Origin: Nostoc punctiforme PCC 73102
GTDB taxonomy: Bacteria; Cyanobacteriota; Cyanobacteriia; Cyanobacteriales; Nostocaceae
DNA: 32,000 nt
Direction: 5' to 3'
Assembly (NCBI RefSeq): GCF_000020025.1
Contig: NC_010628.1
Location: forward strand, 3,480,001 to 3,512,000
Position numbers and translations under genes: made by a program. The notes below the pieces were generated by a model. It saw only the letters and a program-made list of their open reading frames with translations, searched no databases and was not told the origin of the DNA. This document shows positions 9,412-31,324 of the stretch, piece by piece. How positions within the stretch are numbered: the first letter of the stretch is position 1; each line of letters begins with the position of its first letter.

Positions 9412-11136
9412 GTGGGTCAGTATCAACCTACTCAGCTAAAGCTCTATAATCCAGATGCGATAGCTCGCTATTATAGTTACCGTCCTTGGCTAGCCTGGGG
9501 GCGACTGCTGAGAATTATCTCCTCTTTTGCAGTATTTATAATCAGTCTCAAGTGGGACGAATGGCAAGACAAAGTTGAGCAGAACAAGGGTAAACGAGCT
9601 ATCCAGTTGCGAGAACTGCTCACCCGCCTCGGCCCAACTTTTATTAAAGTTGGTCAAGCCCTCTCCACCAGACCTGACTTAATACGTAAGGATTTTTTAG
9701 AAGAACTGATCAAGTTACAAGATCAGTTACCACCTTTCGACAATGCGATCGCTTACAAAATTATCGAAACCGAGCTAGATCGTCCAATTAATGAAAGTTT
9801 TAGCGAACTCTCACCTCACCCAGTCGCAGCAGCTAGCTTGGGTCAAGTATACCGTGGTCGTCTGATCACTGGCGAAGAAGTTGCAGTGAAGGTGCAACGC
9901 CCAAACTTACGCCCAACTCTTACCCGCGACCTCTATTTATTGCGCTGGGGTGCGAGTTGGGTAGCTCCTTGGTTGCCCCTGAATCTCGGTCACGATCTCA
10001 CTTTAATCGTGGACGAGTTTGGCACGAAGCTATTTGAAGAAATCGACTATATAAATGAAGGCCGCAACGCCGAAAAATTTGCTAGCAATTTCCGCAACGA
10101 CCCACAAGTTAAAGTTCCAGGAATTTACTGGCGTTATACCAATACCCACGTTTTAACCCTGGAATGGATTAACGGCTTTAAGCTGACGGATACTAAAAGC
10201 ATCCGCGAAGCAGGTTTAGACCCAGAAGCGATTATCCAAATTGGCGTTACTTCAGGATTGCAACAGCTCCTAGAACACGGCTTCTTTCATGCTGACCCCC
10301 ATCCCGGTAATTTATTTGCTGTACCCGATGGTCGGATGGCTTATATCGACTTTGGCATGATGGATCAGTTGGAAGAAAACACCAAAGAAACACTAGTAGA
10401 TGCGCTAGTGCATTTGGTGAATAAAGACTATACCGACTTAGCCGAAGACTTTGTAAAATTAGGATTTCTGACTCCAGACACGAATATTTGCCCGATAGTG
10501 CCAGCATTAGAAGCGGTGCTAGGAAACGCCATTGGCAAAAATGTCAAGGATTTTAACTTCAAAACTATTACCGATGAATTCTCGGAACTGATGTACGAAT
10601 ATCCTTTCCGAGTTCCGGCGAAGTTTGCTTTGATTATTCGTTCCTTAGTGACTCAAGAAGGTATTGCCCTGAGCCTCAACCCAGATTTCAAAATTGTGGA
10701 AGTGGGTTATCCCTACATAGCACGGCGGTTGCTGACGGGGGAATCGCCGGAATTACGGCGGCGATTATTGAATGTGTTGTTCAAAGATGGTAAATTTCAG
10801 TGGCAGCGTTTAGAGAATTTAATTGCGATCGCTCGTAGTGATAACAACTTTGATGTATTGCCGACAGCCCAGATGGGTTTCCAATATTTAATGTCGGAAG
10901 AAGGCAAGTTCCTGCGGCGACAGCTGGTGCTAGCTCTCACTGAAGATGACCGCCTCCACACCGAAGATGTCCAACGTCTGTGGAACCTAGTTAAAGATGA
11001 CTTAAAACCGGATCGTTTACTAAATGCAGCGATCGGTATTTTAACAAATTTATCTAGAGAAGGCGCGGCGGCTATTCTGCCAAAAGCTACATTTCTAGTG
11101 CCTTTTACTGGAAACCAGTCAGCAATTAAAAACTAA
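9412..11136 (+). CDS. ABC1/AarF/UbiB-family atypical kinase
   Basis: 574 aa. Motifs LGPTFIKVGQALSTRPD, AAASLGQVY, VAVKVQRP, FFHADPHPGNL and IDFGMM are hallmarks of the ABC1 kinase family. GTG start. Confidence 0.9.
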   Translation: MGQYQPTQLKLYNPDAIARYYSYRPWLAWGRLLRIISSFAVFIISLKWDEWQDKVEQNKGKRAIQLRELLTRLGPTFIKVGQALSTRPDLIRKDFLEELIKLQDQLPPFDNAIAYKIIETELDRPINESFSELSPHPVAAASLGQVYRGRLITGEEVAVKVQRPNLRPTLTRDLYLLRWGASWVAPWLPLNLGHDLTLIVDEFGTKLFEEIDYINEGRNAEKFASNFRNDPQVKVPGIYWRYTNTHVLTLEWINGFKLTDTKSIREAGLDPEAIIQIGVTSGLQQLLEHGFFHADPHPGNLFAVPDGRMAYIDFGMMDQLEENTKETLVDALVHLVNKDYTDLAEDFVKLGFLTPDTNICPIVPALEAVLGNAIGKNVKDFNFKTITDEFSELMYEYPFRVPAKFALIIRSLVTQEGIALSLNPDFKIVEVGYPYIARRLLTGESPELRRRLLNVLFKDGKFQWQRLENLIAIARSDNNFDVLPTAQMGFQYLMSEEGKFLRRQLVLALTEDDRLHTEDVQRLWNLVKDDLKPDRLLNAAIGILTNLSREGAAAILPKATFLVPFTGNQSAIKN

Positions 11137-11162
11137 AAACCTATAAATCAGGAGTTTTAATA

Positions 11163-11537
11163 ATGTATTATTTTCCTCTACAACCACCCTATTTCCTTTT
11201 ACTCGTTGGTTTTTTGACAGCATTAACATCTGGTTTGGCATTATCTGGCACTTTGAAAGTAATTGTGCAGAATTGGCCAAGTGAAAGAGCAGAAAATACT
11301 AAACCACGTTCCTCTCTAAAACAATTACTTGTGCCATTTATCGGTATCACTGGCGGGACTTGTCTATTTCTATCTTCAGGTTTAGAGATATTTGGCTTTC
11401 CCTCCACTTTGGCTTTAGGAGTTGGTCTACCAATTAGTTTGTTTACTTGTTTATTAGTTTGGTTGCAGTTGGGAAGTATGATGACCTTTATAGAACGCGA
11501 AGGGATGCAATCTTTAGATTTAGATTCTTTTTCTTAG
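11163..11537 (+). CDS. Small hypothetical membrane protein (about 3 TM)
   Basis: 124-aa ORF starting 26 nt after the ABC1 gene. AGGAG lies about 8 nt upstream of the ATG. Hydrophobic segments are present, and a strong hairpin follows at 11598-11625. Confidence 0.6.
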   Translation: MYYFPLQPPYFLLLVGFLTALTSGLALSGTLKVIVQNWPSERAENTKPRSSLKQLLVPFIGITGGTCLFLSSGLEIFGFPSTLALGVGLPISLFTCLLVWLQLGSMMTFIEREGMQSLDLDSFS

Positions 11538-11597
11538 ATTGATAAAAATATGTTTAAGTTATTATTAACTGAACTGCCTTGATATAGGAATAAACTT

Positions 11598-11633
11598 AAA
11601 TGCTCACCATAGCTGGTGAGCATTTATACTTTT
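11598..11633 (+). terminator. Rho-independent-type terminator
   Basis: A 12-bp perfect stem aaatgctcacca / tggtgagcattt with a 4-nt loop, followed by atactttt. Confidence 0.65.
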
Positions 11634-11876
11634 GTAGTAAGCATTTTTCAAGGCTTTAGTATAGATGCAATTAATTCATGCCTTAAAATCTTTTAGGGAT
11701 TGCATATAATTTTACTAATTAGAGGAAGATAGGTACTATTACAGTAGTCAGCCCCTATATTATATATGTGAACATAGTGTTTGATTTAAATCAAAACAAT
11801 TTGCATGATTCTTCTGTCTCTAAACAAATTTTTAATATTAGTATCAACCAAATTTTATTTAAACAATTAAAATCTT

Positions 11877-12761
11877 ATGAACCAAGAAAAATCAGACATT
11901 TGTTTTTGCACTTTAGCTTTAGGGAAAAGATATCGCTCTCATGCTTTCCTATTAGCTCAAGATATTGAAAAATATTCGCCAGGAGTATATTTAATTCTCC
12001 TAACAGATAAGCCAGAAGAATTTAAAATATATCTTAACGTTTTAGCATTTAAACATGAACAACAGAGCATTGGTTGTTACCACGATAAAAGGTTTGTAAT
12101 TGCCAAAGCCATATCACTGTTTAATACTTGTATATTTGTCGATGCAGATATCAGAATATTAGATAAGTTACAACCAGATATAAAATGGCTTCCTGGTATA
12201 ACAGCAAGAAGTTGTACCAGTATTGCCAAACACAATCAAGAATATATTAATTCAGCAAATGATGATTACAAGGCAAATAGAGTTAGAGATTTGACCATTC
12301 TGAGCAAACTAGCACAAAAACTAGGCCTGGATTTAGAAGATACTAATATTCAGTTTGTCATGGAAATGTTATTTGTAGTTACAAGGCAAAATGGGCGTGA
12401 AATCGAATTTATTAAGCAATGGGAAACTATAGCAATTTACTGTGAGTTAAATGGTTTTTATAGTGCTGAGGGTTATGCAATAGGATTAGCTGCTGCTAAG
12501 GCTGGATTGCCAGTTCGATGGGATGCTATGGACGGTATTGTTTATTTCAAGGATTGGGTAGAACGGCAAAAAATCAAAAAGGGACAAGCAAATCCAGATG
12601 AAACGCTGATATATTTTCAACAGCACGAAGCGATTGAATACCACAAAAATTCGATTTCCCAAAAGCTATTGCATAAGCTAAATAAATTTATTGGTTATTA
12701 CTATCGGTCCTTGCGTTTAAGACTTGCGGCATTGAGTAATTTTAATTTTTATCACCGATGA
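11877..12761 (+). CDS. Hypothetical GT-A-like (DxD) nucleotide-sugar transferase, convergent to the glycosyltransferase operon
   Basis: 294 aa. GT8-style N-terminus (ICFCTLALGKRY...) and a DxD motif, CIFVDADIRIL. No TM segments. The functional call is tentative. Confidence 0.45.
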   Translation: MNQEKSDICFCTLALGKRYRSHAFLLAQDIEKYSPGVYLILLTDKPEEFKIYLNVLAFKHEQQSIGCYHDKRFVIAKAISLFNTCIFVDADIRILDKLQPDIKWLPGITARSCTSIAKHNQEYINSANDDYKANRVRDLTILSKLAQKLGLDLEDTNIQFVMEMLFVVTRQNGREIEFIKQWETIAIYCELNGFYSAEGYAIGLAAAKAGLPVRWDAMDGIVYFKDWVERQKIKKGQANPDETLIYFQQHEAIEYHKNSISQKLLHKLNKFIGYYYRSLRLRLAALSNFNFYHR

Positions 12762-12814
12762 AACTTTGGAAAAACATCAACAAGCTGATTTAATTGGCAT
12801 TCTTTGCTGAATTA

Positions 12815-13852
12815 TTAGTAACCATTAATTTTATCCTTGAAGTTACGATACTTTAATTTAATATTGTTTACTCTTTGCTGAATAAAACTACTAGTAGACT
12901 TTTGCAAAAGCGTTATCTGGCTTGGGCGGGTAAAACTTTGAGGCCGTTTTTCAGGCGACTTTAAATAGCGATAATATAAGAAAACATCGCGGTAAGGGAT
13001 ATCTACATCTTCACCTCCACAAAGCCGCACAAAAGCTGAAGAAGATACACTCATATAGTGTAAGTAGGTCAATTTCCGCCCTTGGTCAAAGAGGATATTA
13101 TCTACTACATCAAATTTAGAACTCCAGTGATTACCAGTTGCCTGCTCGCAGTCATGAAAAGCAAAGTTATAATAGGAAATTCCACTTCTCAACACCATGT
13201 AGTTAAATAAAGATTGGTCAGGTGCTAAAAAAGCCATGACATCTGCCTCACCCGATATTAATTTGCCCATTAAATCGGCTCTTATCGCTGGAGGAAAAAT
13301 ATTTTTCTTGGTTGCAAACCAACCAGCACAAAATACTTTATCTTGCAATTTTTCTGAATTGAAAATTTGCTGCATTTGCTCTGGTGAACCATCAAAAATA
13401 AATTTTAAGTCAGACTTATATTGAAAATCATTGACTACCCAATCAGATGTATCTAATTGTTCATATACATAATCTACTGGCCCCATTAACAAGGTATCTG
13501 CATCAAAATAAATAAATCTATCAAAGGGGCCATCCACAGCACAAAATTTGCGGTGCATTGGTAACTCATAGAGTTCTGAAAAACCCCACTCTCGCCAAGT
13601 TCTTTGCGCTCTAGGATAATTTTTCCATATCTGAGTCGCAAAGTTATCCCAATAAGCTATGGAATCAGAATCTTCAAATAAGCTGACATTATCTCTAGAT
13701 GCAATCTCTGCTTTCACCTTATCTAAGCGCTGATTATATGGAAGTATACAAATAGGAATTTTCCTACCAGCATTAGCTTCTATACTGTTGAGCAATGCTA
13801 CTAGTTGATCATAGACAACATCATTGGCTAGGATGTAAATACCATCAATCAT
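12815..13852 (-). CDS. GT8-like DxD glycosyltransferase-family protein, tandem paralog 1
   Basis: Start set at ATG 13852 (MIDGIYILAND...), with AGGAG about 8 nt upstream; the ORF track extends to 13888. Motifs: ALLNSI, FIYFDADTLLM (DxD), FCAGWF, PDQSLFNY, YLHY, YRDVFLYYRYL. Clearly homologous to the next two genes. Confidence 0.65.
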   Translation of the reverse strand: MIDGIYILANDVVYDQLVALLNSIEANAGRKIPICILPYNQRLDKVKAEIASRDNVSLFEDSDSIAYWDNFATQIWKNYPRAQRTWREWGFSELYELPMHRKFCAVDGPFDRFIYFDADTLLMGPVDYVYEQLDTSDWVVNDFQYKSDLKFIFDGSPEQMQQIFNSEKLQDKVFCAGWFATKKNIFPPAIRADLMGKLISGEADVMAFLAPDQSLFNYMVLRSGISYYNFAFHDCEQATGNHWSSKFDVVDNILFDQGRKLTYLHYMSVSSSAFVRLCGGEDVDIPYRDVFLYYRYLKSPEKRPQSFTRPSQITLLQKSTSSFIQQRVNNIKLKYRNFKDKINGY

Positions 13853-13868
13853 TGGGATACTCCTAATA

Positions 13869-14759
13869 TTAAGTGCGGGCAGCAACAAAAGGAAATAAGC
13901 GGCGAGTCAGTTTGGAGATGAAAGCGAATTTACCCTCATGGAGATAGCGATAGTGTTCCCACAATTGCCAATAGGGACTACCAGTTTTCATCCGCGTACC
14001 AGCCCAGTGGAGATATTTTAGTCGTTGTCCTCGGTCATAGAGGGCATAATCTTGCTGTTGGAAACTTTGTGAACCCGCCCAACTACCAGGCCCACCACCA
14101 GGAATTTTGACGAGGTTTCCTCGTTTGTCAATCAGTTTGAGAACAAGATAATTTAAAATTGGTTGGTCTGTAACTCCTTCAGAAAAATCGAAATATTCAC
14201 GATGCGCTGCACACTCGCGCAAAGCTTCATCCATCTGTTCTTCGGTAATAACTCCTTTTCTCGAAGCCCAAAACCCACTGTTGAAAACATCTTGAAGTTG
14301 AGCATCAGAAAAAAGTTGCTGCTCTTTCACAAATGGGGAAAAGATATTTCGCAGTTTGTCATTGGCATAATGGTAATCACAACAGAAGAAATCAACTTCT
14401 GAAAGTTTGTCTAAATTGTCGGCGATTTTTTCAAAAACGACAATATCTGTATCAATATAAATAAATTCATCTAAAGGACCAAACCACGCAACTAGTTTAC
14501 GCATTTTGTTTGGTAAGGCAAGGAAATCTCGATCAAAAATTTCTCCGATGCGTTTAGTAAATTTATCAATAAGTTCCAAATCTGGGAAAATTTGCACTTT
14601 GTGTAAGGTAGAAAGCTGTTCTGCTACCTTGTGATAATTTTCGTTAAATGGTATTAGATAAATGGTTACTTCTGGATCGTAGTAACGAATACTATTTAGT
14701 AAAGCGATCGCATTATCAATAACACGATCGTTGGCAACAATATAAATTCCCCTACTCAT
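13869..14759 (-). CDS. GT8-like DxD glycosyltransferase-family protein, tandem paralog 2 (most divergent)
   Basis: 296 aa. Motifs GIYIVANDRV..ALLNSI, FIYIDTDIVVF, FNSGFWASRK, TDQPILNY, YLHWAG, WEHYRYL. Start lies 3 nt after the upstream stop. Confidence 0.65.
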   Translation of the reverse strand: MSRGIYIVANDRVIDNAIALLNSIRYYDPEVTIYLIPFNENYHKVAEQLSTLHKVQIFPDLELIDKFTKRIGEIFDRDFLALPNKMRKLVAWFGPLDEFIYIDTDIVVFEKIADNLDKLSEVDFFCCDYHYANDKLRNIFSPFVKEQQLFSDAQLQDVFNSGFWASRKGVITEEQMDEALRECAAHREYFDFSEGVTDQPILNYLVLKLIDKRGNLVKIPGGGPGSWAGSQSFQQQDYALYDRGQRLKYLHWAGTRMKTGSPYWQLWEHYRYLHEGKFAFISKLTRRLFPFVAART

Positions 14760-14762
14760 AAA

Positions 14763-15743
14763 TTATCCTTGGTTAATTAACTTAAGTTTTCGCAAAGCTC
14801 TTGTAAGTAAATTTGGTACTGGAGCGTCATTATAATTCTTCGGAGGGTTTTGAAAGATGGGACGCTTATCTGGTTCGTTTAAGTAACGATAGTAGAGAAA
14901 TAAATCTCGATAGGGAAAATCAATATTTTCTCCAGCACAGACTGCTTGATTAATATTAGGAGGGATACCAATATAATGAAGGTAGGTTAGCCGATTACCT
15001 TTGTCATAAAGAAGGTGTTCTCGTTCCTCGAAGTGCTTAGATGTGGCGGAACATCCTGTCTTTGCATTATCTGGTAGTTGACGAGCAAAGTTATAAATAT
15101 AAAGATTAGACCTCATTACCATGTAGTTTATCAGTGGTTGTTCTCCAGCACCGCCATACAAAATTTCCGCCTCACCATTTTGTAAATGCGATATTAGTAA
15201 ATCTCTTTGTTCTGAGTTAAATGTTCCTCGTTTTGCACCATAGAAACCGGAGCAAAAAATTTCAGAATCAATCCGCTTTTGCTCGAAAACTTCTAGTAAT
15301 TTTGGCGAGTTAACATTATATATCTTACTAACGTCTTTAAATTGGAAATCGTAGACAACAAAATCATACGTATCTAGCTTTTCAAACACCGATGTCAGAG
15401 AATTCATCACCAAGGTGTCTGCATCTAAATAGATAAATTTATCGAATGGCCCATCAAAGGCGCAAAAACGCCGATGAGCGCCATACAACCGTGATTTACT
15501 CCGATTCAATCGCTCTGGTGCTGCTGAGAGCATAAATTGATCCCAACGGTTGATTGATTCTTGATTATCGTAAAGAAATACATTAGGTCGTTTAGCTATT
15601 TCATCAGCAATTCGCTGTGTCTGATCGTCGAAAGGATAGATACAAACAGGAATTTCGGGGCCCAAGATAACATCAATACTGTTGAGCAAAGCCACCAGTT
15701 GATCGAAAACATAATCATTGCCAAGGGTACAAATACCATTCAT
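14763..15743 (-). CDS. GT8-like DxD glycosyltransferase-family protein, tandem paralog 3
   Basis: 326 aa. Motifs GICTLGNDYVFDQLVALLNSI, FIYLDADTLVM, FCSGFYGAKR, GEQPLINY, YLHYIG, YRDLFLYYRYL. Start lies 3 nt after the upstream stop. Confidence 0.65.
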   Translation of the reverse strand: MNGICTLGNDYVFDQLVALLNSIDVILGPEIPVCIYPFDDQTQRIADEIAKRPNVFLYDNQESINRWDQFMLSAAPERLNRSKSRLYGAHRRFCAFDGPFDKFIYLDADTLVMNSLTSVFEKLDTYDFVVYDFQFKDVSKIYNVNSPKLLEVFEQKRIDSEIFCSGFYGAKRGTFNSEQRDLLISHLQNGEAEILYGGAGEQPLINYMVMRSNLYIYNFARQLPDNAKTGCSATSKHFEEREHLLYDKGNRLTYLHYIGIPPNINQAVCAGENIDFPYRDLFLYYRYLNEPDKRPIFQNPPKNYNDAPVPNLLTRALRKLKLINQG

Positions 15744-15746
15744 AAT

Positions 15747-16706
15747 TTATGAGTGTTGATCGACAAAGTTTGATAACCAGTTAAGTAAGTTTAATTTATG
15801 TAGAATAATTTGACGTGCTTCTGCGATCGCATCTTTGGCAGCATACCAAGCATCAGGTGTAGCCGTCACTTCTTGGATGTAGGCAATACCTTTTTCATCT
15901 AAACTGGGCAACCGCAAAAAACTACCCGGTGGCAATAATTTATCAGCAGCAGGGCCACCATAGTAGATTGGTAGACACCAGGCAAGTAAACTATCCCAAA
16001 GTTTCTCACTGACATACCAATTATTGTCAGCATAATTTTCAATTGCCAAATTGTAATAGTATGGTGCCATCCCATACCATTTGTTACCTAGCTCTCCCGA
16101 TTTTTTAGCCGATTCTGGTAGGTTACGCCCATATAAATCAAATTTCATGCCACTAGATTGTAGGGACTGTAAAAAGTCTAAACGCTGGCGATGTTTGGCT
16201 GTACGACTAATTCCCGAAGTAATCCAACTGCATGGGGCAACCTTTTCAGGTGGAGGCATTTCATTTAAATCTTGAAATGAATTTGAATGATACCAAATAG
16301 CAGGCATATAGTCAGGAGTCGGGGCAAAATCATCGGGGCCAGAAATGTAGCCGCAATACTTCTGGGCTTGTTGATAATTATGATTAGTTGTTTCGACAAT
16401 TTCATCTAAAGGCGGTTCCCTTAGCAAATAAATAATCCGATCTTTGTTGATACCACGCAGTAGAGAATCAACATTTACTACTGATTTTTGCTGCCGTTTG
16501 CGAAAGCTATCTAACCAAGATTTTTGTGGCGCTGCTTGGGGAAAATCAAATTGATACATCAGTAGAAAATCTGGTTTAGTTGCTAGTGACTGCATTTGCA
16601 TATTGCCCCAAACTCCAAATTGATGAGGGGTTTGTTGCCACAGCCAATCGGCTCTAGTTTCTAAACCTCGATAGCTGCTAATCATTCCTACAGTTTTTAT
16701 AGTCAT
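15747..16706 (-). CDS. GT10-like glycosyltransferase (alpha-1,3/4-fucosyltransferase-type C-terminal domain)
   Basis: 319 aa. YNLAIENYADNNWYVSEKLWDSLLAWCLPIYYG matches the GT10 pattern FENSxxxxYVTEKxxDxxxxxxxPIYxG. Confidence 0.65.
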   Translation of the reverse strand: MTIKTVGMISSYRGLETRADWLWQQTPHQFGVWGNMQMQSLATKPDFLLMYQFDFPQAAPQKSWLDSFRKRQQKSVVNVDSLLRGINKDRIIYLLREPPLDEIVETTNHNYQQAQKYCGYISGPDDFAPTPDYMPAIWYHSNSFQDLNEMPPPEKVAPCSWITSGISRTAKHRQRLDFLQSLQSSGMKFDLYGRNLPESAKKSGELGNKWYGMAPYYYNLAIENYADNNWYVSEKLWDSLLAWCLPIYYGGPAADKLLPPGSFLRLPSLDEKGIAYIQEVTATPDAWYAAKDAIAEARQIILHKLNLLNWLSNFVDQHS

Positions 16707-16747
16707 TTTAGTTATTAGTCATTTGCCATTTATCTTCTAGATTCTTT

Positions 16748-17971
16748 TTATGCGATAAATAGGGGTAGCAGAGATTCATCAACATAACTAAGAATTTTTG
16801 CGGCTCGATTTTCCCAAGAAAACTGCTTGACAAATTCGATACTATCTGGATAACCTTCTATTTTTCTAGGATGAGTTTCTAAAACCTGCTTCAGACTTTC
16901 GGCAAATTTGCTCGGGTTATCTGGTTCACACCAAGCAGCGATCGCTTTTGTATCTTGAAACTCAACTAATGAAGGGATTTCCGTCGAGACAATAGGAGTT
17001 CCAGAGGCGAAGTAGTCAAACAGCTTTAAAGGAGATGTGAAAGTTGCCGCTTTTCCCGAACAATGAGGGTGAGCTAAAACATCCGCTGCTTGTAGCAAAG
17101 ATGCTAACTCATTATGCAAGACATAGCCCAAAAATTGAATATTATAAACCTGTTTTTCTTTTACCAATTGCTGATAATATTCTACTTCTGCTGGCTTACC
17201 ACCTGCACAGGCAAATTGCACATTAGGCATTTCGTTAGCCACATCAATTAGTACATCAATACCTTTAAATTGCTGTAACGCTCCCGCATAAACTACCAAT
17301 TTTTGGTTTTCATCTCGCAATAGTTTTTGTCGCCATTCTGCGGCTTTTTCTGGTTGTCTCTGCATAAACAAGCGATTGAAACCATTGTGCAACTTAATTA
17401 CTTTTTCTGGCGGCATCCCATTTTTAATCATGCTTTCACGGATTGTTTCTACAACGGTGACAGCTATTTGTAAGAGTGGATTTGTAACAATTTCTTGCTC
17501 AAATGGTTTCTCTTCATGGTGGTGGTGTTCATAAATTGCCGGAATGCCATTTTTGATGGCAGCTTTGACAAAATTCCAGTTGCGACTGTGGACAAGTTTA
17601 GTACTTGGAAGTATATGAAATGGTAAATAATACTTGCTTGCAATAGTGTTGGAGTCAGTAAATTTGCTCGAGAAATGGTCAATCGGCCAAGGCATCGGTA
17701 ATGGAGCAACTTTTAACTTGTCATGGAGATTGTAATATTCAATAAGTTCTGTTGGTGTTTTTATCGGTTCAAAAGGACGCAGTAAATTAATTGGGTTATT
17801 AGCTTTCACTCCTTTATCAGGGTATACCAAAACTGTTGAGTATCCTAAGTTAGCGGCGGCATTAGCTGCGTTTGTAGACTGCACTAGGTGAGCCTCTGGC
17901 TGAGGTAATTCTTCACCAATGAAAAAAATATAGTGTTTTTTTAAAGTATTAGTTTCCATAATTTTAGACAT
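16748..17971 (-). CDS. GT4-family (GT-B fold) glycosyltransferase
   Basis: C-terminal GT-B signature (LAHPHCSGKAATFTSPLKLFDYFASGTPIVST). The start is ambiguous: ATG at 17971 overlaps the ABC stop, ATG at 17959 (METN...) lies 4 nt after it, and the ORF-track TTG is at 17986. Confidence 0.8.
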   Translation of the reverse strand: MSKIMETNTLKKHYIFFIGEELPQPEAHLVQSTNAANAAANLGYSTVLVYPDKGVKANNPINLLRPFEPIKTPTELIEYYNLHDKLKVAPLPMPWPIDHFSSKFTDSNTIASKYYLPFHILPSTKLVHSRNWNFVKAAIKNGIPAIYEHHHHEEKPFEQEIVTNPLLQIAVTVVETIRESMIKNGMPPEKVIKLHNGFNRLFMQRQPEKAAEWRQKLLRDENQKLVVYAGALQQFKGIDVLIDVANEMPNVQFACAGGKPAEVEYYQQLVKEKQVYNIQFLGYVLHNELASLLQAADVLAHPHCSGKAATFTSPLKLFDYFASGTPIVSTEIPSLVEFQDTKAIAAWCEPDNPSKFAESLKQVLETHPRKIEGYPDSIEFVKQFSWENRAAKILSYVDESLLPLFIA

Positions 17972-20288
17972 TAATATTATCCTCAAATGTTTCTAAACTC
18001 TTCAAAAGACATATCGCAGATTCATAAGTTTCACTAACTAATTCATTTGGCTCTTCTTGGGGAGTATCTATAAAATTATCTGCTAGAGAGCGGAGAGAGC
18101 TAAGTATGAGATTCAGAGAAGTTCTAAACTCAACTGAGAGATGATTAAAGCTTTGATAATAGTTACTGATGACATTTTGATTTTGGTCAGAAATTGAAAG
18201 AATCTGCCCCCTTATTTGTAAGTTAATCACATCCTCAAAAATATCAATGGTGTTGAGAATTCTCCAGGCTGATTTATAAGAGTCTTCAATTAGTTTGTGC
18301 CGTTCTTGAGAATCGTCTCCCAGATCATCAAGTAATAAGTATAGGAACCCAATCATCGAGTTCAACTGTGTCCGAATTTCGTGAGAGATGCGGAGCGAGC
18401 TTTGATTGTGTTTAGTAGCGGCTTCAGGACGATCGACAAATTTCTTTGAGTTTAGGCGCATTGCCTTAAGAATTTTTGTCTGAATCAAGTTTTTATTAGG
18501 GCGATCGCTAAATTGCATTGAGTACAGGCGTGAGTAGTAAGCACCTTTTTGCAAAAGTTCTTCATGGGTTCCCACTTCTACTACCTGTCCTTGATCTAAT
18601 ACAGCTATTTGATCGGCTTTTTGGACTGTAGAAAGGCGGTGAGCAATAACTAGGGTGGTGCGATCGCGACTAAGATCGTCAAGTGCAGATTGTACTAATC
18701 GTTCGGAAACGGTATCTAAAGCGCTGGTGGCTTCATCTAAAATCAGAATTTCGGGATTTTGGAGGAGGGCGCGGGCGATCGCTAATCTTTGCCTTTGTCC
18801 ACCAGACAACATTACCCCGCGATCGCCAATTAGGGTGTCAAATCCTTGAGGCAATTTGCTAATAAACTCATAAGCATTTGCCCGCTTTGCTGCTGTCAAA
18901 ATCTCATCGTCAGTAGCCTGTGTTCGCCCATAAGCGATGTTATTTTGCACTGAGTCATTAAAAAGAAAGGTATCTTGACTGACAATCCCCATCCGCTTCC
19001 GTAGGGATACTAGATCGAACTCCCGCAAATCGGTGCCGTCAATGGTAATACTGCCAGCGATCGGGTCATAAAATCTGGGTAAAAGGTCTGCCAAGGTAGA
19101 TTTACCAGCCCCAGAACCGCCTACCAATGCTAAGGTCGTACCACGCGGTAAATATAAATTTACATCTTTGAGTACCAACTTTTCATGACCAGGGTAGGCA
19201 AAGCAAAGAGAATTAAAAGACACTCCCTTTTCTAATTTTGTGTAGGGAAGCTTACCTTTCTCCATGAACGGCTTATCGTGCAAGCTCAAAAACTCATTCG
19301 TCACATCCACACTAGCTGCGGTACTGGCAAAGTTGCTGCGAATAGTATTTAACTGAGAAATCAATGGCAGTACTCGCAGCAGCACTAATAAATATGTCAA
19401 TAGTACGGTAGAAAGCGAAGAAACCTGTTGAGCAAAGAAGGTTTTGCTCAAAAGTACAATCAGCAGTAAAGCTGTAATACCCATTACCTCACTTAGAGGT
19501 GTAATGGCTTCCGAATTAACTTGAGATTGGAAATCTGCTAATTCGCGATCGCGAATTAGTTTTTTAATCCGTTGATATTCTTTTTCTTCATTTCCCGTCG
19601 ATTTTACCAATCGAATTCCGTTCAGAGTTTCCAGTACGGAGACAGAATATGCTCTAGACATCTCACTCAGCTGCTTCCCAAAATTTCTTGACCGGGAAAT
19701 AGCATACTGGTTTACTAACGTCACCAACGATAACAAAAGCGTAGCAGCAATTGTCAACTGCCAAGAAATTGACAGCAACAAACTGACAAAAACTAAAATT
19801 GTGATTGCCAGGATAACTATCTTGACGATACTACCTATAGAACTTGCAGACCGACCAATTTCTCCACCAAGACGGTTGATTAAATCTCCGACCTTAGTTT
19901 TGGCATAATAATCTATATCAATTTCTAGTAATAGCTTTAACCCAGTTTCGCGCATATCTGATGTTAGCTTTCGGGTTAAAGAACTCGATGCTAATGAACT
20001 GGCATAAGTAGCTAAATTCTTTAAAATAATTGTGAAAATAATCGCCCCAGCCATTACTCCTATCCGGTAAGGCTCTGGAGTATTATCAAAGGGAGATATC
20101 ATCGTTTTTAGGATAGGAGGAGCAGTACTTAAATCTACTTCTTGTCCCACGATTTTTAAAACCACTGGCACAATTAAAGCGGTGCTAATCCCATTAAATA
20201 AAGCTCCAGAAAATCCTAACAATATTGTCAGTAGAATCAAACCTGGATAGGGCCTAGCGAATCGTAATAGCAGTTTTCTGGTAGACAT
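17964..20288 (-). CDS. ABC exporter half-transporter (6-TM domain + NBD, MsbA/PglK type) with a C-terminal tandem HisKA/DHp-like extension
   Basis: 774 aa. N-terminal TM domain, Walker A GGSGAGKST, signature LSGGQRQR, Walker B ILILDEATSALD. After the NBD ends (...YSMQFSDR, about aa 590) the tail has an H-box LRISHEIRTQLNSMIGF (His636, nt 18381-18383) and a second, degenerate copy LSVEFRTSLNLILS (Val719). Confidence 0.9.
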   Translation of the reverse strand: MSTRKLLLRFARPYPGLILLTILLGFSGALFNGISTALIVPVVLKIVGQEVDLSTAPPILKTMISPFDNTPEPYRIGVMAGAIIFTIILKNLATYASSLASSSLTRKLTSDMRETGLKLLLEIDIDYYAKTKVGDLINRLGGEIGRSASSIGSIVKIVILAITILVFVSLLLSISWQLTIAATLLLSLVTLVNQYAISRSRNFGKQLSEMSRAYSVSVLETLNGIRLVKSTGNEEKEYQRIKKLIRDRELADFQSQVNSEAITPLSEVMGITALLLIVLLSKTFFAQQVSSLSTVLLTYLLVLLRVLPLISQLNTIRSNFASTAASVDVTNEFLSLHDKPFMEKGKLPYTKLEKGVSFNSLCFAYPGHEKLVLKDVNLYLPRGTTLALVGGSGAGKSTLADLLPRFYDPIAGSITIDGTDLREFDLVSLRKRMGIVSQDTFLFNDSVQNNIAYGRTQATDDEILTAAKRANAYEFISKLPQGFDTLIGDRGVMLSGGQRQRLAIARALLQNPEILILDEATSALDTVSERLVQSALDDLSRDRTTLVIAHRLSTVQKADQIAVLDQGQVVEVGTHEELLQKGAYYSRLYSMQFSDRPNKNLIQTKILKAMRLNSKKFVDRPEAATKHNQSSLRISHEIRTQLNSMIGFLYLLLDDLGDDSQERHKLIEDSYKSAWRILNTIDIFEDVINLQIRGQILSISDQNQNVISNYYQSFNHLSVEFRTSLNLILSSLRSLADNFIDTPQEEPNELVSETYESAICLLKSLETFEDNINV

Positions 20289-20600
20289 TGGGTATTTCTA
20301 TGCAATTTTCACTTATTAATATTATTCACAAATCACTTGCCAAACTTGCTAATATCAAATAAAACAAAACTAAATAATTTTCAATATCCCAACAAAAGAA
20401 GCAGTTATTGCTGGAAGAATATTGCCCGATCGCAAGGGGAGATTACAAGAGCGATTTTTTCCTGTCGCCATCAAAGTTAGCTTGTGGTTTGAGTCCTCAC
20501 AACTTTTGTATGGCCTCAATTTACCCAAGATTGAACCCCCAACTGAAAAGTTCCTCTACCTCCCACTTTCTTCAATTTACGCTTCCTTCCATATTAATAT

Positions 20601-21764
20601 TTACAACTGAGAAATTACCGACTTTAATACCGAAGCCATAGCCTCTATACTATAGTGTTCTACACATCTTTTTCTGGCGTTGATACCTTGCTGGTTTGCT
20701 GACTCTAAATTCTGAAAAATCCATTGAATCTGTTCAGCAATCTGCTCAGGACAAGCAGGATCGACTAAATAACCAGTATCACCTAATATTTTGGGAATAT
20801 CTCCAACGCGCGTTGATAATACAGGTTTAGCCATTGCCATTCCATCTGTCAACTTCAGGGGAAATTGAGCGCGAGTTTCTGGGGTATCTCGTTGGGGAAC
20901 AACTACAATGTGAGCTGCTGCTACTAAATCAGGCATTATATCCGCTGGATATTTTGGTAATTTGATAATCCAGCGTCCCCATTTTCGTTGAAGTTGCCGA
21001 TCGTAATCATCATAAGGACTGCCACCTACAATCACTAGTCTTAAGTCTGGTTGATTAATTTTATCGAGCGCTATGAGAACATCTTCTAGACCTTTGTAGG
21101 GTCTTGGCGCACCAGGAAACATTAAAATACGATATTCAGATAAACCATAACGATTTCTGCTGGACTCAGCATCATATCGAGCAGGATCAAATAAAGCAGT
21201 ATCCTTACCATTGGGAACAAATGTACCCCCAAAACGCTGCTGCAAAAATTTAGTATGCACCGTCACCGCATCAGCACTATTTACCAAACCTTCCATCCAT
21301 TTTACGTATAAAGGATGATAAGGATTCCTGAGTGCGCCGTCTGATTTAAACAAGTCCCTGACTAATTGTTTGGGTGTGAAACGATAATGCCAGTCATCGC
21401 CACCATACCAACTGAGTTCCCAATCATCTATGTCTAAAATTAATGCTTTTTGGCTAAATATTTTCTTGAGTAGGGCGACTCCAAAACTCGCTATTTGTGG
21501 TTTTATTGCATAAATTATATCTCCATTGATTTTTGGTAAAAATTTGTGAATTTCTCCGAAAAAATCGGGAAAATTTTTACCCGGCAAATTATAAACGTTT
21601 AATTCTGATGGCAAATTTCGATATAAGTTATTTCCAAATAAAAACCCCATGATTTCAACTTCGTATTCTAAGTTTCTTAGGGCTGTTGCTATCAAGTATG
21701 CACGCAAAATAGCTGCACTTGATAAATCTGAAACCAACAGCGATATCTTGGAAAAATTTTTCAC
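20601..21764 (-). CDS. GT4-family (GT-B fold) glycosyltransferase
   Basis: 387 aa. C-terminal GT-B donor-binding region (VVVPQRDTPETRAQFPLKLTDGMAMAKPVLSTRVGDIPKIL). Confidence 0.8.
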   Translation of the reverse strand: MKNFSKISLLVSDLSSAAILRAYLIATALRNLEYEVEIMGFLFGNNLYRNLPSELNVYNLPGKNFPDFFGEIHKFLPKINGDIIYAIKPQIASFGVALLKKIFSQKALILDIDDWELSWYGGDDWHYRFTPKQLVRDLFKSDGALRNPYHPLYVKWMEGLVNSADAVTVHTKFLQQRFGGTFVPNGKDTALFDPARYDAESSRNRYGLSEYRILMFPGAPRPYKGLEDVLIALDKINQPDLRLVIVGGSPYDDYDRQLQRKWGRWIIKLPKYPADIMPDLVAAAHIVVVPQRDTPETRAQFPLKLTDGMAMAKPVLSTRVGDIPKILGDTGYLVDPACPEQIAEQIQWIFQNLESANQQGINARKRCVEHYSIEAMASVLKSVISQL

Positions 21765-21782
21765 TGTTTTTATACTTAATAT

Positions 21783-22625
21783 TTATTTAATGCGCCAAGG
21801 ATTTGTAACTTGATTCGGTAAAAATACTTTAGCGAATCTGTCAAAAACCCTTGTATATAAGGAACGACTAATATCTTTAGCATATTGAGGCCGATAAGGA
21901 TAAGTACAGTGAAGAACTTTAATTGTATCCTGAATATCATAAGCATCCTGCCACTTGCTGAGATAATTATAGGTTGGTGGTAAGATTTTCTTATGAGGTT
22001 GTACAGATGCGATCGCAGAAGCAAAAGCCCCTTGATCTTTTAAAAGCAATTTATCTTGATTATTTTTGACAATCTCAAAATAACGTTTAAATTCGTCAAA
22101 AAATATTTTGGTTACTTCAGTTTTCCGAAAAGCCATAAAACCGCCATTATACTGCACACTATCTGCTTGTAATGGTAATCCTACCGATTGCAAAATTGGC
22201 AGAACGTTTGGCAAAAGTTCTTCTTGTTTACCACGTAATAAGTTTGTAGCTTTAAGAATAGAAGGTTGCACATCTTCGGTTAGTAAAAACTCATATTCAT
22301 CTAAATAGTCAAATACATCATTGATGTTTGTAAGTAAACAAATATCTGAATCTAGGTAAATCGTTTTATCAAACTCAGAAGCCTCATATAGAGCCAATTT
22401 TGCTTGCCGCGATGCTAAAACAGTATTTTCGTTTGCTGGTGCTGGTTTTAAAATTACATTTTTGAACGCCTTAAGCAAGGGATAAAGAACTATTGGAACT
22501 TGGTCAATTAAAATAATGATTGGCTCTTGATGAAACTTTCTGACTGCTGCTAAAAAATGAATACAATCTTGAAACGAGTAAAGCCCAGTTAGAATTGTAA
22601 TAAAACCTTTAGTTGGTGTTGACAT
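21783..22625 (-). CDS. GT8-like DxD glycosyltransferase-family protein (first gene of the operon)
   Basis: 280 aa. Ordered GT8-type motifs TIYLDSDICLL, YNGGFMAFRK, KDQGAFAS, VLHCTYPYRP. No TM segments. Confidence 0.6.
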   Translation of the reverse strand: MSTPTKGFITILTGLYSFQDCIHFLAAVRKFHQEPIIILIDQVPIVLYPLLKAFKNVILKPAPANENTVLASRQAKLALYEASEFDKTIYLDSDICLLTNINDVFDYLDEYEFLLTEDVQPSILKATNLLRGKQEELLPNVLPILQSVGLPLQADSVQYNGGFMAFRKTEVTKIFFDEFKRYFEIVKNNQDKLLLKDQGAFASAIASVQPHKKILPPTYNYLSKWQDAYDIQDTIKVLHCTYPYRPQYAKDISRSLYTRVFDRFAKVFLPNQVTNPWRIK

Positions 22626-23030
22626 AAATCCAATGAATAATTTTTGTTGACTTTGAAAATTAGATAAGTATTTATTTATAAAATCTTACTTTAGTTTGAG
22701 TGATAGTTAAATTCGATAGAGTAGAGATCAGCAAAATATGAATTTGAATATTGATTATGTTTAAGCAAAAAAATATTAAAATAAATTTAACTTTATATTT
22801 ATAACTATTCCCAGAGAAAATTCACTGATAAATTCATCTAAATTTTACTTTATTTAAGTATAATTACCGTGTAAACACAAAAGTATAATATTCATAGGTA
22901 ATATTGCACTATAACTATAATAAACAAAGTATAAACACTTGATATAGCTTGTGAATGTAGCACTATTATTCACTGGAATCTGGGATTGCTACTCAATACC
23001 AAACATTTATGTTGTAAGGGAGCAGAGGTA

Positions 23031-24781: not shown

Positions 24782-27412
24782 ATGGCTGAAGAACTTAATT
24801 TTAAAGGCGATGGTAGCGATCGCCTCCCCCCACAAAATATTGAGGCCGAAGAAGCGATTTTGGGGGGTATTTTGCTAGATCCAGAAGCGATTAGTCGAGT
24901 TAGCGATCGCCTCCTTCCCGAAGCTTTTTACATTAGCGCCCATAAAGATATTTATCAGGCAGCTGTGAGGCTCCACACCCAAGGTAAACCAACAGATTTG
25001 CTCTCAGTCACAAGTTGGCTAACTGACCATGAGATGCTTACCCGCATAGGCGGCAGAAATAAACTAGCAACTCTGGTAGACCGCACAGTCTCAGCCGTGA
25101 ACATCGATGCCCTCGCAGGGTTGGTGATGGAAAAATACCTGCGGCGGCAGTTAATTAAAGCTGGCAATGAAATTGTACATCTTGGTTACGAGACAGAAAC
25201 CGAGTTACCAACTGTTTTAGATCAGGCAGAACAGAAAGTATTCGGCGTAACCCAAGAGCGTCCACAGTCAGGTTTAATTCACATTTCTGATACTCTAATT
25301 AATAATTTCCAGGATATCGAGGATCGAAATCAAGGCATCGCCTTACCTGGTGTTCCCTGCGGATTTTACGATTTAGATGCCATGACCAGTGGCTTTCAAC
25401 GCTCTGATTTGATTATTGTCGCGGGCCGCCCATCAATGGGGAAAACCGCATTTTGCTTAAACCTTGCTCATAATATAGCTGCTTCTTATAAATTACCAGT
25501 TGCTTTTTTCAGCTTGGAAATGTCCAAAGAGCAATTGACACAACGTTTATTAGCCAGTGAAGCGCAAATTGAAAGTAGTTATCTGCGGACTGGTCGCCTC
25601 AGTCAAACACAATGGGAACCTTTAAGCCGTGCTATTGGTATCCTTTCCGAGATGCCAATTTATATTGACGACACGCCGAATATTACAGTTACACAAATGC
25701 GTAGTCAGGCAAGAAGGCTGCAAGCGGAAGTTGGAACTGAATTAGGATTAATTGTAATAGATTACTTGCAATTGATGGAAGGAGCAGGCGATAATCGCGT
25801 ACAAGAATTATCAAAAATTACGCGTCAACTCAAAGGTTTAGCGCGGGAATTATCTGTACCAGTTATTGCTTTATCTCAGTTAAGTCGAGGGGTGGAAGCG
25901 CGTACTAATAAGCGTCCGATGTTGTCAGATTTGAGAGAATCTGGTTGTTTAGCAGGCGATAGTCTGGTGACATTAGTAGATAGCGGACTGCAAGTGCCAA
26001 TTAAGGAATTAGTAGGTAAATCTGGTTTTGCAGTTTGGGCATTGAACGAAGCTACAATGCAGCTAGAAAAGGCAATTGTTAGCAATGCTTTTTCGACTGG
26101 TATAAAGCCTCTGTTTACTTTGACAACTCGATTGGGGCGGAAAATCCGTGCCACAGGTAATCACAAGTTTTTAACAATTAATGGCTGGAAAAGACTTGAT
26201 GAATTAACTCCTAAAGAACATCTCTGTTTACCAAGAAATCTCCCCAGTTCTGGTAAACAAACTATGACTTATGCCGAAGTTGCATTATTAGGGCATTTAA
26301 TTGGCGACGGTTGTACATTGCCACGTCATGCCATACAGTACACTACCAGAGAAATAGATTTAGCTCAGAATGTTGCTTTCTTGGCAACAGAAGTTTTTGG
26401 AGACTCAATTGTTCCTAGAATTTCACCTGAACGTGAGTGGTATCAAGTTTACTTATCCGCAGCACAGCATCTAACTCATAGTGTTAGAAATCCAATAGCC
26501 AAATGGCTAGACTCTCTGAATGTTTTTGGTTTAAGGTCTTACGAAAAATTTGTACCTCGAGAATTGTTCTCACAACCCAAAGAGTTAATAGCGTGCTTTC
26601 TAAGACACCTTTGGAGTACAGATGGTTGTATAAACTTAATTGCAGGAAAAAAGCCAAGACCTATTGCATTTTATGCAAGCAGTAGTGAGAGACTAGCTTT
26701 TGATGTACAGACACTTTTATTAAGGCTTGGTATTAATGCAACACTAAGGACAGTTCCTCAAGTTGGCAAAGGTAGAAACCAATATCATGTAATAATTACT
26801 GGTAAGCCCGATCTTCAGTTATTTATTGTTCATGTTGGAGCAGTAGGACAATATAAGCTACGTTCACTCCAAGATATTTTCCAACACCTTGAAAACAGTA
26901 TTCACAACCCTAATAGAGATATAATTCCGAAGGATATTTGGAAAATGGAGGTTGTACCTGCGATGCAAGCTATTGGCTTCACCACACGGATATTACAAGC
27001 CTCCATTGGAGTTTCGTATTGTGGCTCTACTCTTTACAAAGTAAATTTAAGTCGAGAAAGAGCTTTAAAAGTTGGCAACATTGTTCAATCATCTAAACTG
27101 GTTACTCTTGCCAAAAGTGATGTTTATTGGGATGAAATAGTTTCAATTGAATATAGTGGTGAGGAAGAAGTGTTTGACCTCACCGTTCCTGGTTTGCATA
27201 ATTTTGTTGCAAATAATATTATTGTTCACAATTCCATTGAACAAGACGCGGATTTAGTAATAATGTTGTATCGCGATGAATACTACTCTCCCGATACTCC
27301 CGATCGCGGCATTGCAGAAGTAATTATAGCTAAACACCGCAACGGGCCTACAGGGACAGCTAAACTTTTGTTTAATCCACAGTTTACAAAGTTTCAAAAT
27401 TTAAAAATTTAG
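24782..27412 (+). CDS. dnaB: Replicative DNA helicase DnaB, interrupted by an intein (876-aa precursor, 447-aa mature)
   Basis: N-terminal PPQNIEAEEAILGGILLD, Walker A GRPSMGKTAF, and VIDYLQLM. The extein junction RESG / SIEQDADLV is restored once the intein is removed. Confidence 0.95.
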   Translation: MAEELNFKGDGSDRLPPQNIEAEEAILGGILLDPEAISRVSDRLLPEAFYISAHKDIYQAAVRLHTQGKPTDLLSVTSWLTDHEMLTRIGGRNKLATLVDRTVSAVNIDALAGLVMEKYLRRQLIKAGNEIVHLGYETETELPTVLDQAEQKVFGVTQERPQSGLIHISDTLINNFQDIEDRNQGIALPGVPCGFYDLDAMTSGFQRSDLIIVAGRPSMGKTAFCLNLAHNIAASYKLPVAFFSLEMSKEQLTQRLLASEAQIESSYLRTGRLSQTQWEPLSRAIGILSEMPIYIDDTPNITVTQMRSQARRLQAEVGTELGLIVIDYLQLMEGAGDNRVQELSKITRQLKGLARELSVPVIALSQLSRGVEARTNKRPMLSDLRESGCLAGDSLVTLVDSGLQVPIKELVGKSGFAVWALNEATMQLEKAIVSNAFSTGIKPLFTLTTRLGRKIRATGNHKFLTINGWKRLDELTPKEHLCLPRNLPSSGKQTMTYAEVALLGHLIGDGCTLPRHAIQYTTREIDLAQNVAFLATEVFGDSIVPRISPEREWYQVYLSAAQHLTHSVRNPIAKWLDSLNVFGLRSYEKFVPRELFSQPKELIACFLRHLWSTDGCINLIAGKKPRPIAFYASSSERLAFDVQTLLLRLGINATLRTVPQVGKGRNQYHVIITGKPDLQLFIVHVGAVGQYKLRSLQDIFQHLENSIHNPNRDIIPKDIWKMEVVPAMQAIGFTTRILQASIGVSYCGSTLYKVNLSRERALKVGNIVQSSKLVTLAKSDVYWDEIVSIEYSGEEEVFDLTVPGLHNFVANNIIVHNSIEQDADLVIMLYRDEYYSPDTPDRGIAEVIIAKHRNGPTGTAKLLFNPQFTKFQNLKI
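25946..27232 (+). mobile_element. DnaB intein (429 aa) with a LAGLIDADG homing-endonuclease domain
   Basis: Block A CLAGDSLVTL (Cys1 at 25946), block B ATGNHKF, LAGLIDADG motifs LLGHLIGDGC and FLRHLWSTDGC, blocks F/G VFDLTV...NIIVHN, then Ser+1 (27233). In frame; 1287 nt. Confidence 0.92.
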
Positions 27413-31245: not shown

Positions 31246-31324
31246 AGAAACTTGCCTGTCAATAATGTGGAGAGATAGGGACAGACAAACAAAAAATGTT
31301 TGCGTCCCTTTGTTGACTTGGAAT

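Follow-up and report, generated by a model that had tools for sequence, protein, structure and literature searches.

What is a module of histidine-kinase origin doing at the end of a pump, in a protein that has no kinase catalytic domain? The question is raised by one gene of the cyanobacterium Nostoc punctiforme PCC 73102, which lies in contig NC_010628.1 within positions 3,480,001 to 3,512,000 (this stretch of 32,000 nucleotides is called the window below, and coordinates are counted from its first letter). The gene, 17964-20288 on the minus strand, codes for a 774-aa ATP-binding cassette (ABC) exporter that carries beyond its ATPase a tail of two tandem modules related to the dimerization and histidine phosphotransfer (DHp) domain of sensor kinases; its extent and identity were established from the list of open reading frames (ORFs), exact-sequence identity and Pfam. 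We refer to the protein and its relatives as ABC-DHp. By analogy with characterized systems, the tail may be a tethered, single-chain DHp of the pseudokinase type, which docks the receiver domain of a regulator encoded elsewhere and thereby couples a two-component pathway to the exporter. On whether that answer is right we are evenly divided.

The exporter and its tail

The product is identical in sequence to N. punctiforme ACC81359.1 (WP_012409352.1; UniProt B2IVH4). By gene order the gene is probably Npun_R2826, since the three downstream ORFs are named Npun_R2821/R2822/R2823 family by NCBIfam. The protein starts as a type-IV half-transporter: an MsbA-like transmembrane domain (aa 1-340; 19269-20288, minus strand, as is every feature of this gene; Pfam ABC_membrane at 65-304, 80.1 bits) is followed by one nucleotide-binding domain (NBD), the sole ATPase of the protein (aa 341-593; 18510-19268; ABC_tran at 373-522, 122.9 bits). 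The Walker A motif of the NBD, G.SG.GKS, is kept at the same position in all parsed orthologs. The core comes closest to the NCBIfam family HepA_fam_ABC (NF045513; 571.6 bits), with MsbA next (461.9 bits). As the score of 571.6 bits lies below the equivalog cut-off of 725, the exporter is a paralog of HepA and not HepA itself. The match to the HepA model (610 positions) stops at residue 592, leaving the tail entirely uncovered.

Beyond the NBD there is a flexible linker (aa 594-628; 18405-18509) and then module 1 (aa 629-692; 18213-18404), a HisKA hairpin recognized by Pfam. Its H-box, SHEIRTQLNSMIG, has His636 at the canonical phospho-acceptor position (codon CAC, 18381-18383, within RISHEIR at 18372-18392) and conforms to the pattern of a phospho-acceptor followed by E/D-x-x-T/N (S-H636-E-I-R-T640). 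Module 2 (aa 715-774; 17967-18146) does not conform, since Val719 stands at the His position (HLSVEFR), and by BLASTP it is a degenerate duplicate of module 1. An earlier note on this DNA had described the product as a 774-aa exporter with two HisKA/DHp modules and no catalytic (CA) domain, and had placed His636 at 18381-18383 and a valine at the equivalent position of module 2. The text that it quoted is exact, Pfam and BLASTP agree with it about the modules, and the translation agrees about the two residues.

The CA domain of a kinase was searched for directly: no match of the 774-aa protein to HATPase_c was found in Pfam even at E<=10. After module 1 only 82 residues remain before the C-terminus, and the next gene is a glycosyltransferase. 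Because the domain that defines a kinase was tested for and is absent, the protein is a HisKA-domain protein joined to a type-IV ABC exporter, and not a sensor histidine kinase (EC 2.7.13.3). Some members of the family have been automatically named 'histidine kinase' in UniProt; with no catalytic domain, that name is wrong for ABC-DHp proteins.

Three independent routes indicate that the resemblance of the tail to HisKA is above chance. The first is the Pfam profile. HisKA (PF00512) matches residues 634-682 of the whole protein with 27.9 bits, above the gathering score (26.9), and the tail by itself reaches 39.9 bits (E=4.4e-10) in two matched stretches, a significant outcome of the profile search that the earlier note had set beforehand as a check. 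The second is an exhaustive phmmer search. Residues 596-774, run against 1.84 billion representative proteins, gave 189 matches at E<=1e-3. The 12 matches at E<=1e-10 are the ABC-DHp family itself, and the rest, as far as they were inspected, are overwhelmingly ordinary HisKA+HATPase_c kinases aligned at the DHp, for example PAS-HisKA-HATPase_c-REC hybrids. The third is the sequences of solved structures, of which the best are the DHp of GacS (7n0e, E=0.007; 7z8n, E=0.01), with RetS (6dk7, E=0.69) far weaker. The weak NCBIfam matches of the tail likewise fall on kinase DHp regions, mostly of the hybrid or phosphorelay type (ArcB, TorS, BarA, LuxQ, EvgS, and HrmK).

The two modules also match each other. 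Over 58 aa, module 1 (about 629-692) has 38% identity to module 2 (about 715-774; BLASTP, E=3e-11), and the two are collinear through both helices to a terminal FED.IN motif. Because the hairpins are homologous to each other, the tail, in the last 146 residues of the protein, is an internally duplicated, kinase-less DHp. In kinases, module 2 taken alone finds the DHp segment that module 1 also finds (in P0056, for example, 356-405 as against 357-413), and in the divergent family member P0035 it still has SVRTQLNVMIGTMRFLIDDL, much nearer an H-box. Many kinase alignments reach query residue ~164, which prompted the idea that module 2 is a relic of the N-terminus of a CA domain. The alignments of module 2, to module 1 and on its own to kinase DHp, led us to reject the idea.

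A canonical DHp is a homodimer of hairpins. How, then, might two hairpins in one chain be arranged? The AlphaFold2 model of the tail, computed for the monomer only and on a shallow alignment of 38 sequences, is a compact four-helix fold (mean per-residue confidence, pLDDT, 78.9; predicted template-modelling score, pTM, 0.73; 78 residues with pLDDT >=90). The helices span 626-653, 660-695, 701-738, and 745-773. Those of module 1 are mostly above pLDDT 80, and the preceding linker is of low confidence, being below 50 in this and in a full-length model. Since the pTM is 0.73 for four helices, the hairpins are confidently placed against each other, a packing that is read from the pTM and not from model coordinates. 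The topology is suitable: alpha-2 runs back to the NBD-proximal end, a loop of 5 residues leads into alpha-3, and hairpin 2 can therefore fill the place of the second protomer of a canonical DHp dimer. To judge from the model, the two hairpins most likely form a four-helix bundle within one chain, which imitates the DHp homodimer in covalent form. The best PDB neighbours of the tail in Foldseek are single-chain four-helix bundles (designed proteins, FAT domains, and b562/BRIL) with TM scores of 0.5-0.6. The superficial matches to cytochrome b562-type bundles led us to consider the residue at 636 as a heme or metal ligand, for which no supporting evidence was found.

Conservation and position 636

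In a genome scan the tail was found in 79 species-level genomes (Nostoc, Komarekiella, Desmonostoc, Roholtiella, Tolypothrix, Calothrix, and Aulosira), and at all 79 loci it belongs to an intact ABC fusion of 746-782 aa. Of the best 120 homologs in the database, which are 73-97% identical, nearly all are full-length fusions (747-782 aa), the few shorter entries coming from short contigs; the set adds Cylindrospermum, Scytonema, Fortiea, Halotia, and Kalymmatonema, for at least 10 genera in all. More divergent cyanobacterial lineages retain the tail at 36-50% identity. The fusion is ancient within Nostocales and under selection. A frameshift or an assembly artefact is ruled out by the intact fusion at 79/79 loci and in 120/120 best protein matches. 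Such an artefact, or an unconserved tail, was what the earlier note had named as grounds for giving up its reading, and neither holds, the tail being under purifying selection as well as present throughout. Two tail-only proteins, P0309 (Fischerella sp., 167 aa, on a 5.6-Mb contig) and P0033, start inside the end of the NBD (MGTHEELLQKNGHY...); the Fischerella gene may be split or frameshifted, or its tail may be expressed on its own.

The strength of selection differs along the protein. Pairwise dN/dS (the ratio of nonsynonymous to synonymous substitution rates) is 0.12 in the transmembrane domain, 0.09 in the NBD, 0.47 in the linker (mean identity 66%), 0.15 in module 1, 0.30 in the loop between the modules, and 0.31 in module 2; for the whole tail it is 0.25. 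Purifying selection on hairpin 1 is about as strong as on the transmembrane domain. In hairpin 1 all 80 genomes share the block S635-H-E-I-R-T-Q-x-N-S-M-I-G647 without change, except for L642 (L in 66, M in 14) and single exceptions at I638, S644, and M645. The block includes the exposed polar residues H, E, R, T, Q, N, and S. Alpha-2 of module 1 is also largely near-invariant (Y671 K672 S673 A674. R676 ... N679. I681 D682. F684. D686). In module 2, the column equivalent to the His is variable (V in 42, I in 15, A in 9, S in 4, and Y in 4).

Position 636 itself behaves in an unusual manner. Among 132 full-length family members it is His in 126 and Tyr in six, and nothing else; in the species genomes it is His in 80/80. 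The phospho-acceptor His that the earlier note had described as retained is indeed present in N. punctiforme and throughout those 80 genomes, although with Tyr in 6/132 members it is not universal. Tyr is found in Nostoc cf. commune SO-36 (P0248), Cylindrospermum NIES-4074 (P0262), and Scytonema HK-05 (P0278). Their nearest relatives (93, 85, and 85% core identity, respectively) all carry His, and the change from His to Tyr has therefore occurred at least three times independently within Nostocales. Two deep cyanobacterial lineages, P0035/P0299 (~58% core identity) and P0305 (~50%), also have Tyr, which brings the Tyr lineages to at least five, and Tyr recurs in three metagenomic fragments (P0019, P0028, and P0034). 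All the Tyr variants keep the E, R, T, and N of the H-box (SYEIRT.LN). In the Tyr lineages the protein, the tail, and the operon are intact, and these include complete genomes whose nearest relatives have His.

The His636 codon is CAC or CAT, from which seven other amino acids are one mutation away; Tyr alone is observed. Since only Tyr replaces His despite these options, what selection retains appears to be a His-or-Tyr side chain and not a phosphorylatable one. Because the replacement is recurrent and the rest of the H-box is kept, obligate phosphotransfer is unlikely to be the core function of the family.

A proposed docking role and its rivals

What could a DHp face be kept for, if not for carrying phosphate? 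In the HK853-RR468 complex, the alpha-1 positions of the DHp contact the regulator and carry the motif H-E/D-x-x-T/N (PMC3510030; PMC7005713). The conserved, exposed S635-G647 face supports docking because these are the same regulator-contacting positions. Within the motif, the acidic residue is specific to the kinase reaction and Thr/Asn to the phosphatase reaction, and the DHp of EnvZ or NtrB alone suffices for phosphatase activity (PMC3510030). HK853 without its CA domain is also active as a phosphatase, the His merely assisting the reaction (PMC7005713). A precedent is DivL of Caulobacter, which has Tyr at the H position and works in vivo without being phosphorylated and without help from its CA domain. 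With neither kinase nor phosphatase activity, it acts as a sensor that recognizes DivK~P at the canonical docking face, and the change Y550H does not affect binding (PMC4211667). The ABC-DHp family shows a matching signature, with His and Tyr interchanged, the rest of the face frozen, and the CA domain missing, which is why docking is preferred here over phosphotransfer.

We picture the four-helix bundle as hanging from the exporter NBD by a flexible tether, with hairpin 1 alone keeping the functional face (H/Y-E-x-x-T...N..G). The tail would dock the receiver domain of a response regulator and so link a two-component pathway to the pump for the glycan that the co-operonic glycosyltransferases would make. 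The signal could pass in either direction. A phosphorylated regulator bound to the tail might gate export, as in DivL-like reverse signalling. Alternatively, the state of transport might control access to the DHp face, which would hold the regulator or dephosphorylate it through the HExxT motif; in the His-bearing Nostoc proteins, exchange of phosphate with the regulator would be a further option. Both the docking and its direction are what we infer. More tentatively, and on balance we would not expect it to hold in full, the tail would read a two-component or phosphorelay signal, possibly from a receiver-only developmental regulator, and serve as a switch or flux reporter on the glycan pump, with sister lineages adding cyclic dinucleotides through ComFB.

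The linker is consistent with a tether. It includes a 24-aa insert (aa 598-621; 18426-18497) that is a 72-nt tandem duplicate of the segment coding for the C-terminal helix of the NBD (aa 574-597; 18498-18569). The local DNA alignment of the two copies scores 53.5, as against 20.9 +/- 4.1 (maximum 35) in 500 shuffles. The insert is present in a 773-aa class of orthologs and absent from a 749-aa class; N. punctiforme-like proteins and those of Tolypothrix, Calothrix, and Aulosira have it. Overall, linker length varies among orthologs by 0, +24, or +33 aa, the further +9 aa being found in one clade (L007, L010, and L078), and the tether between NBD and DHp is 35-68 aa. Such variable length argues against a rigid, register-dependent mechanical coupling. 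A linker that is disordered, fast-evolving, and variable in length is what one expects of a tethered docking module.

A distant relative may tell what kind of region the C-terminal extension is. P0305, of 920 aa, from a cyanobacterial metagenome contig, starts with the exporter and ends in the tandem tail, with Tyr; between them lie a low-complexity linker and, at 680-731, a ComFB domain (53 bits). ComFB is an established family of c-di-GMP/c-di-AMP receptors. The order NBD-ComFB-DHp mirrors the order of sensor and then DHp in kinases, and the insertion marks the C-terminal extension as a region of regulatory input or output. P0305 (10001-12763 of its locus, L081) is also the one family member with a response-regulator gene nearby, an OmpR-type regulator at 13531-14295 on the minus strand, ~0.8 kb downstream and on the opposite strand; it is a single case. 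Another multi-DHp architecture is seen in P0040/P0300 (906 aa, metagenome), where three tandem HisKA/DHp modules (H-box RHDLRTPINA) are followed by a receiver and an adenylate/guanylate cyclase domain; HATPase_c is absent from this protein too.

Several points weigh against this picture of a docking bundle. His is kept in 80/80 species genomes, so phosphorylation could matter in Nostocaceae. Much of the H-box is conserved across the whole HisKA family, and its invariance here could partly be inherited structure and not a working interface. The monomer-only AlphaFold2 run on a shallow alignment may hide a swap of domains, or contacts between protomers, in the transporter homodimer. A Foldseek search of the PDB returned nothing at E<=0.001, only generic helical bundles, as is expected for a generic fold, and the geometry of NBD and tail is not readable from the full-length AlphaFold2 model, which is poor (pLDDT 58, pTM 0.35) while repeating the four helices and the disordered 594-628 linker. 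Lastly, no gene for a receiver domain was found by tblastn within +/-10 kb, in the window or at any of the 79 Nostocales loci. With no receiver gene nearby, the docking proposal rests on analogy. The window ORFs of >=120 aa likewise contain no response regulator, kinase, or Hpt (histidine phosphotransfer) gene, so that the earlier note was right in finding no response regulator in the window. A partner regulator or kinase encoded next to the exporter was accordingly dropped as a candidate, L081, the ComFB variant, being its sole case.

The same neighbourhood is what one would see if the tail had no two-component partner at all and were a purely structural or allosteric appendage, either a dimerization zipper or a C-terminal regulatory domain acting on the NBDs. 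The C-terminal regulatory domains of MalK or MetN and the C-terminal zipper helices of some heterodimeric exporters would be its analogues. DHp domains are dimerization modules by origin, a half-transporter must homodimerize, and the phospho-acceptor is dispensable in some lineages. Nevertheless, we find this account doubtful. The predicted fold satisfies the hairpins intramolecularly and leaves no obvious interface for a dimer, and the disordered, length-variable, fast-evolving tether would make a poor rigid clamp. A clamp also leaves unexplained the invariant polar residues of the H-box and the restriction of position 636 to His or Tyr, and the relative with ComFB suggests an input of signal rather than a scaffold only.

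The invariance of His in the species genomes, together with that of the kinase-associated Glu at H+1, could instead mean that the tail is an obligate phosphorelay station resembling Spo0B, ChpT, or Hpt: His636 would take phosphate from a receiver-only regulator or from a CA domain acting in trans and pass it on, and export would share its flow with a developmental phosphorelay. In Nostoc and Anabaena, heterocyst polysaccharide genes, hepA among them, are controlled by receiver-only regulators such as DevR, whose partner is the kinase HepK. The nearest DHp domains are those of hybrid and phosphorelay kinases (ArcB, TorS, BarA, GacS, and HrmK), and a monomeric four-helix bundle with one exposed His, which is the predicted fold, is the design of Hpt. 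However, the tail resembles Hpt only in its predicted fold class; its sequence ancestry is HisKA, and the Pfam scan gave no match to Hpt (PF01627) at E<=10. With Tyr in place of His in at least five lineages whose protein, tail, and operon are intact, no CA domain in cis, and no partner gene nearby, an obligate relay is improbable. Phosphorylation of His636 by the ABC NBD was also considered; nothing supports it, and the tether as well as the chemistry make it unlikely.

There is a slimmer chance still that the tail is a decoy, which forms mixed bundles with the DHp of a bona fide (hybrid) kinase and thereby inhibits or activates that kinase in the style of RetS and GacS. Heteromerization of the RetS and GacS DHp domains regulates exopolysaccharide production, and GacS (7n0e, 7z8n) is the closest solved sequence. 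Yet the GacS and RetS matches are weak (E ~0.007-0.7) and reflect the general H-box of hybrid kinases, no feature of the context supports a decoy, and in the predicted fold the paired hairpins of the chain already satisfy each other. Finally, that the tail is a functionless remnant of an accidentally fused kinase gene, or an artefact of annotation or assembly, as the degenerate module 2 and the missing CA domain might suggest, is effectively refuted by its conservation (79/79 loci, all of the best 120 matches, at least 10 genera, and divergent lineages at 36-50% identity) and by purifying selection (dN/dS 0.25 for the tail and 0.15 for module 1).

The earlier note had offered a clamp, docking or phosphotransfer, and a coupling of export to signalling side by side. 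The clamp is weakened by the predicted intramolecular bundle and the floppy linker, obligate phosphotransfer is made unlikely by Tyr, and docking fits better.

The glycan cluster and known systems

The exporter gene belongs to an eight-gene cluster for glycan synthesis and export (12815-22625, minus strand; Pfam and NCBIfam). Its first gene is u280, a 280-aa ORF whose family is unassigned. ABC-DHp comes third, between two glycosyltransferase genes of family 4 (GT4), and a GT10-like gene and three Npun_R2821-2823-family paralogs make up the rest. Apart from u280, which is present at 76/79 loci, every gene is present at 79/79; order and strand are identical in the 12 loci listed, which come from several genera. 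The cluster is flanked by rplI/gloB and by an ABC1 kinase gene. It is a core, vertically inherited unit for the synthesis and export of a glycan or glycoconjugate. The ATG of the downstream GT4 overlaps the stop codon of ABC-DHp (ATGTCTAA, 17964-17971, minus strand), and this overlap suggests that the two are translationally coupled. The TTG at 17986, with which the ORF finder starts the longest ORF of that GT4, is probably not the real start. The three tandem paralogs (12815-15743, minus strand; NF045582, 'Npun_R2821/Npun_R2822 family'), all found at 79/79 loci, may be novel glycosyltransferases; one of them is weakly GT8-like by Pfam. G+C content dips to 0.30-0.34 at 11001-13000 and 22001-23000, on either side of the cluster.

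Elsewhere in the window, 24782-27412 (plus strand) encodes a DnaB helicase with an intein and a LAGLIDADG homing endonuclease (Pfam DnaB_C, Intein_splicing, and LAGLIDADG_3); a DnaB homolog at >=50% query coverage was found in only 13/79 loci, the flanks of the 79 seldom extending to that gene. Towards the edges of the window are a putative endonuclease of the Uma2 family (586-1143, minus strand) and a homolog of the HopA1 effector family (30154-31371, minus strand).

Why should a link of this kind matter? Two-component control of transporters is usually thought of as transcriptional, the Bce modules, with a separate complete kinase, being the best-studied exception. The fusion is conserved among heterocystous cyanobacteria, in which envelope polysaccharides are decisive for motility, desiccation tolerance, and symbiosis as well as for the function of heterocysts, and N. 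punctiforme is genetically tractable. If docking is true, a kinase-less DHp on the NBD of an exporter would be a direct link, at the level of protein, between signalling and glycan export. Should the tail indeed be a switch or flux reporter, it would be a first in two respects, as a two-component signal that reaches an ABC exporter post-translationally by way of a fused DHp and as a DHp bundle that occurs naturally in a single chain. The family is also a natural experiment on what a DHp needs, with tandem duplication in place of a homodimer, the CA domain gone, and a toggle between His and Tyr, and it would extend the concept of the DivL pseudokinase.

The earlier note knew of no description of this architecture. 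We, too, found no functional or structural one under the architecture, the locus tags, or the accessions, in literature that did not extend to supplements and subscription papers (most of N. punctiforme transcriptomics among them). The architecture itself is nevertheless on view in public databases, and an ABC-ComFB fusion in Limnothrix has been noted in passing, its DHp-like tail unmentioned (PMC12448109). That protein, A0A1C0VII2 of Limnothrix sp. P13C2, has ABC and ComFB like P0305, to whose family it may belong. P0305 shares with ABC-DHp the exporter family and the tandem DHp-like tail, there with Tyr at the H position; it differs in having the extra ComFB domain and the long low-complexity linker.

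Among known exporters, those of the HepA/MsbA/PglK type have the same core fold and similar glycosyltransferase surroundings, and HepA_fam_ABC is the closest family. ABC-DHp differs from HepA by its score below the equivalog cut-off and by a tail outside the HepA model. Among known DHp proteins, the fragments of EnvZ, NtrB, and HK853 show that a DHp without CA binds and dephosphorylates a regulator through H-E/D-x-x-T/N, and HEIRT is intact in ABC-DHp. Those fragments, however, are laboratory truncations. Spo0B and ChpT are DHp-type phosphotransferases that relay phosphate; they are soluble homodimers with a degenerate CA-like domain. In contrast to ABC-DHp, neither a tandem DHp within one chain nor fusion to a transporter is seen in any of these five. 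What is unusual in ABC-DHp is precisely these two features, the duplicated DHp in a single chain and its fusion to the NBD of an exporter.

Two systems may come nearer in function. DivL likewise has a HisKA DHp whose H position is open to Tyr while the rest of the docking face is conserved. It is a homodimer that still has its CA domain and, upstream, PAS domains, and the protein that it regulates is another kinase, CckA, whereas ABC-DHp has no CA domain, has its DHp duplicated in one chain behind a complete N-terminal ABC exporter, and has mostly His. There is no sequence-specific relationship between DivL and the ABC-DHp tail, and the N. punctiforme protein itself carries His. In the Bce modules (BceAB-BceS), an ABC transporter is physically coupled to two-component signalling, as is proposed for ABC-DHp; transporter and kinase form one sensory complex, in which transport activity and signalling inform each other (PMC4513084; PMC10314905). 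There the kinase is separate and complete (DHp and CA) and associates through membrane domains, the transporter has a MacB-like fold, and the setting is resistance of Firmicutes to peptide antibiotics; in ABC-DHp the DHp has no CA domain and is covalently joined to the NBD of the exporter, which is of type IV and encoded in a glycan operon of cyanobacteria. In sum, by analogy ABC-DHp would work most like DivL and, in concept, like the Bce modules, while being a member of neither.

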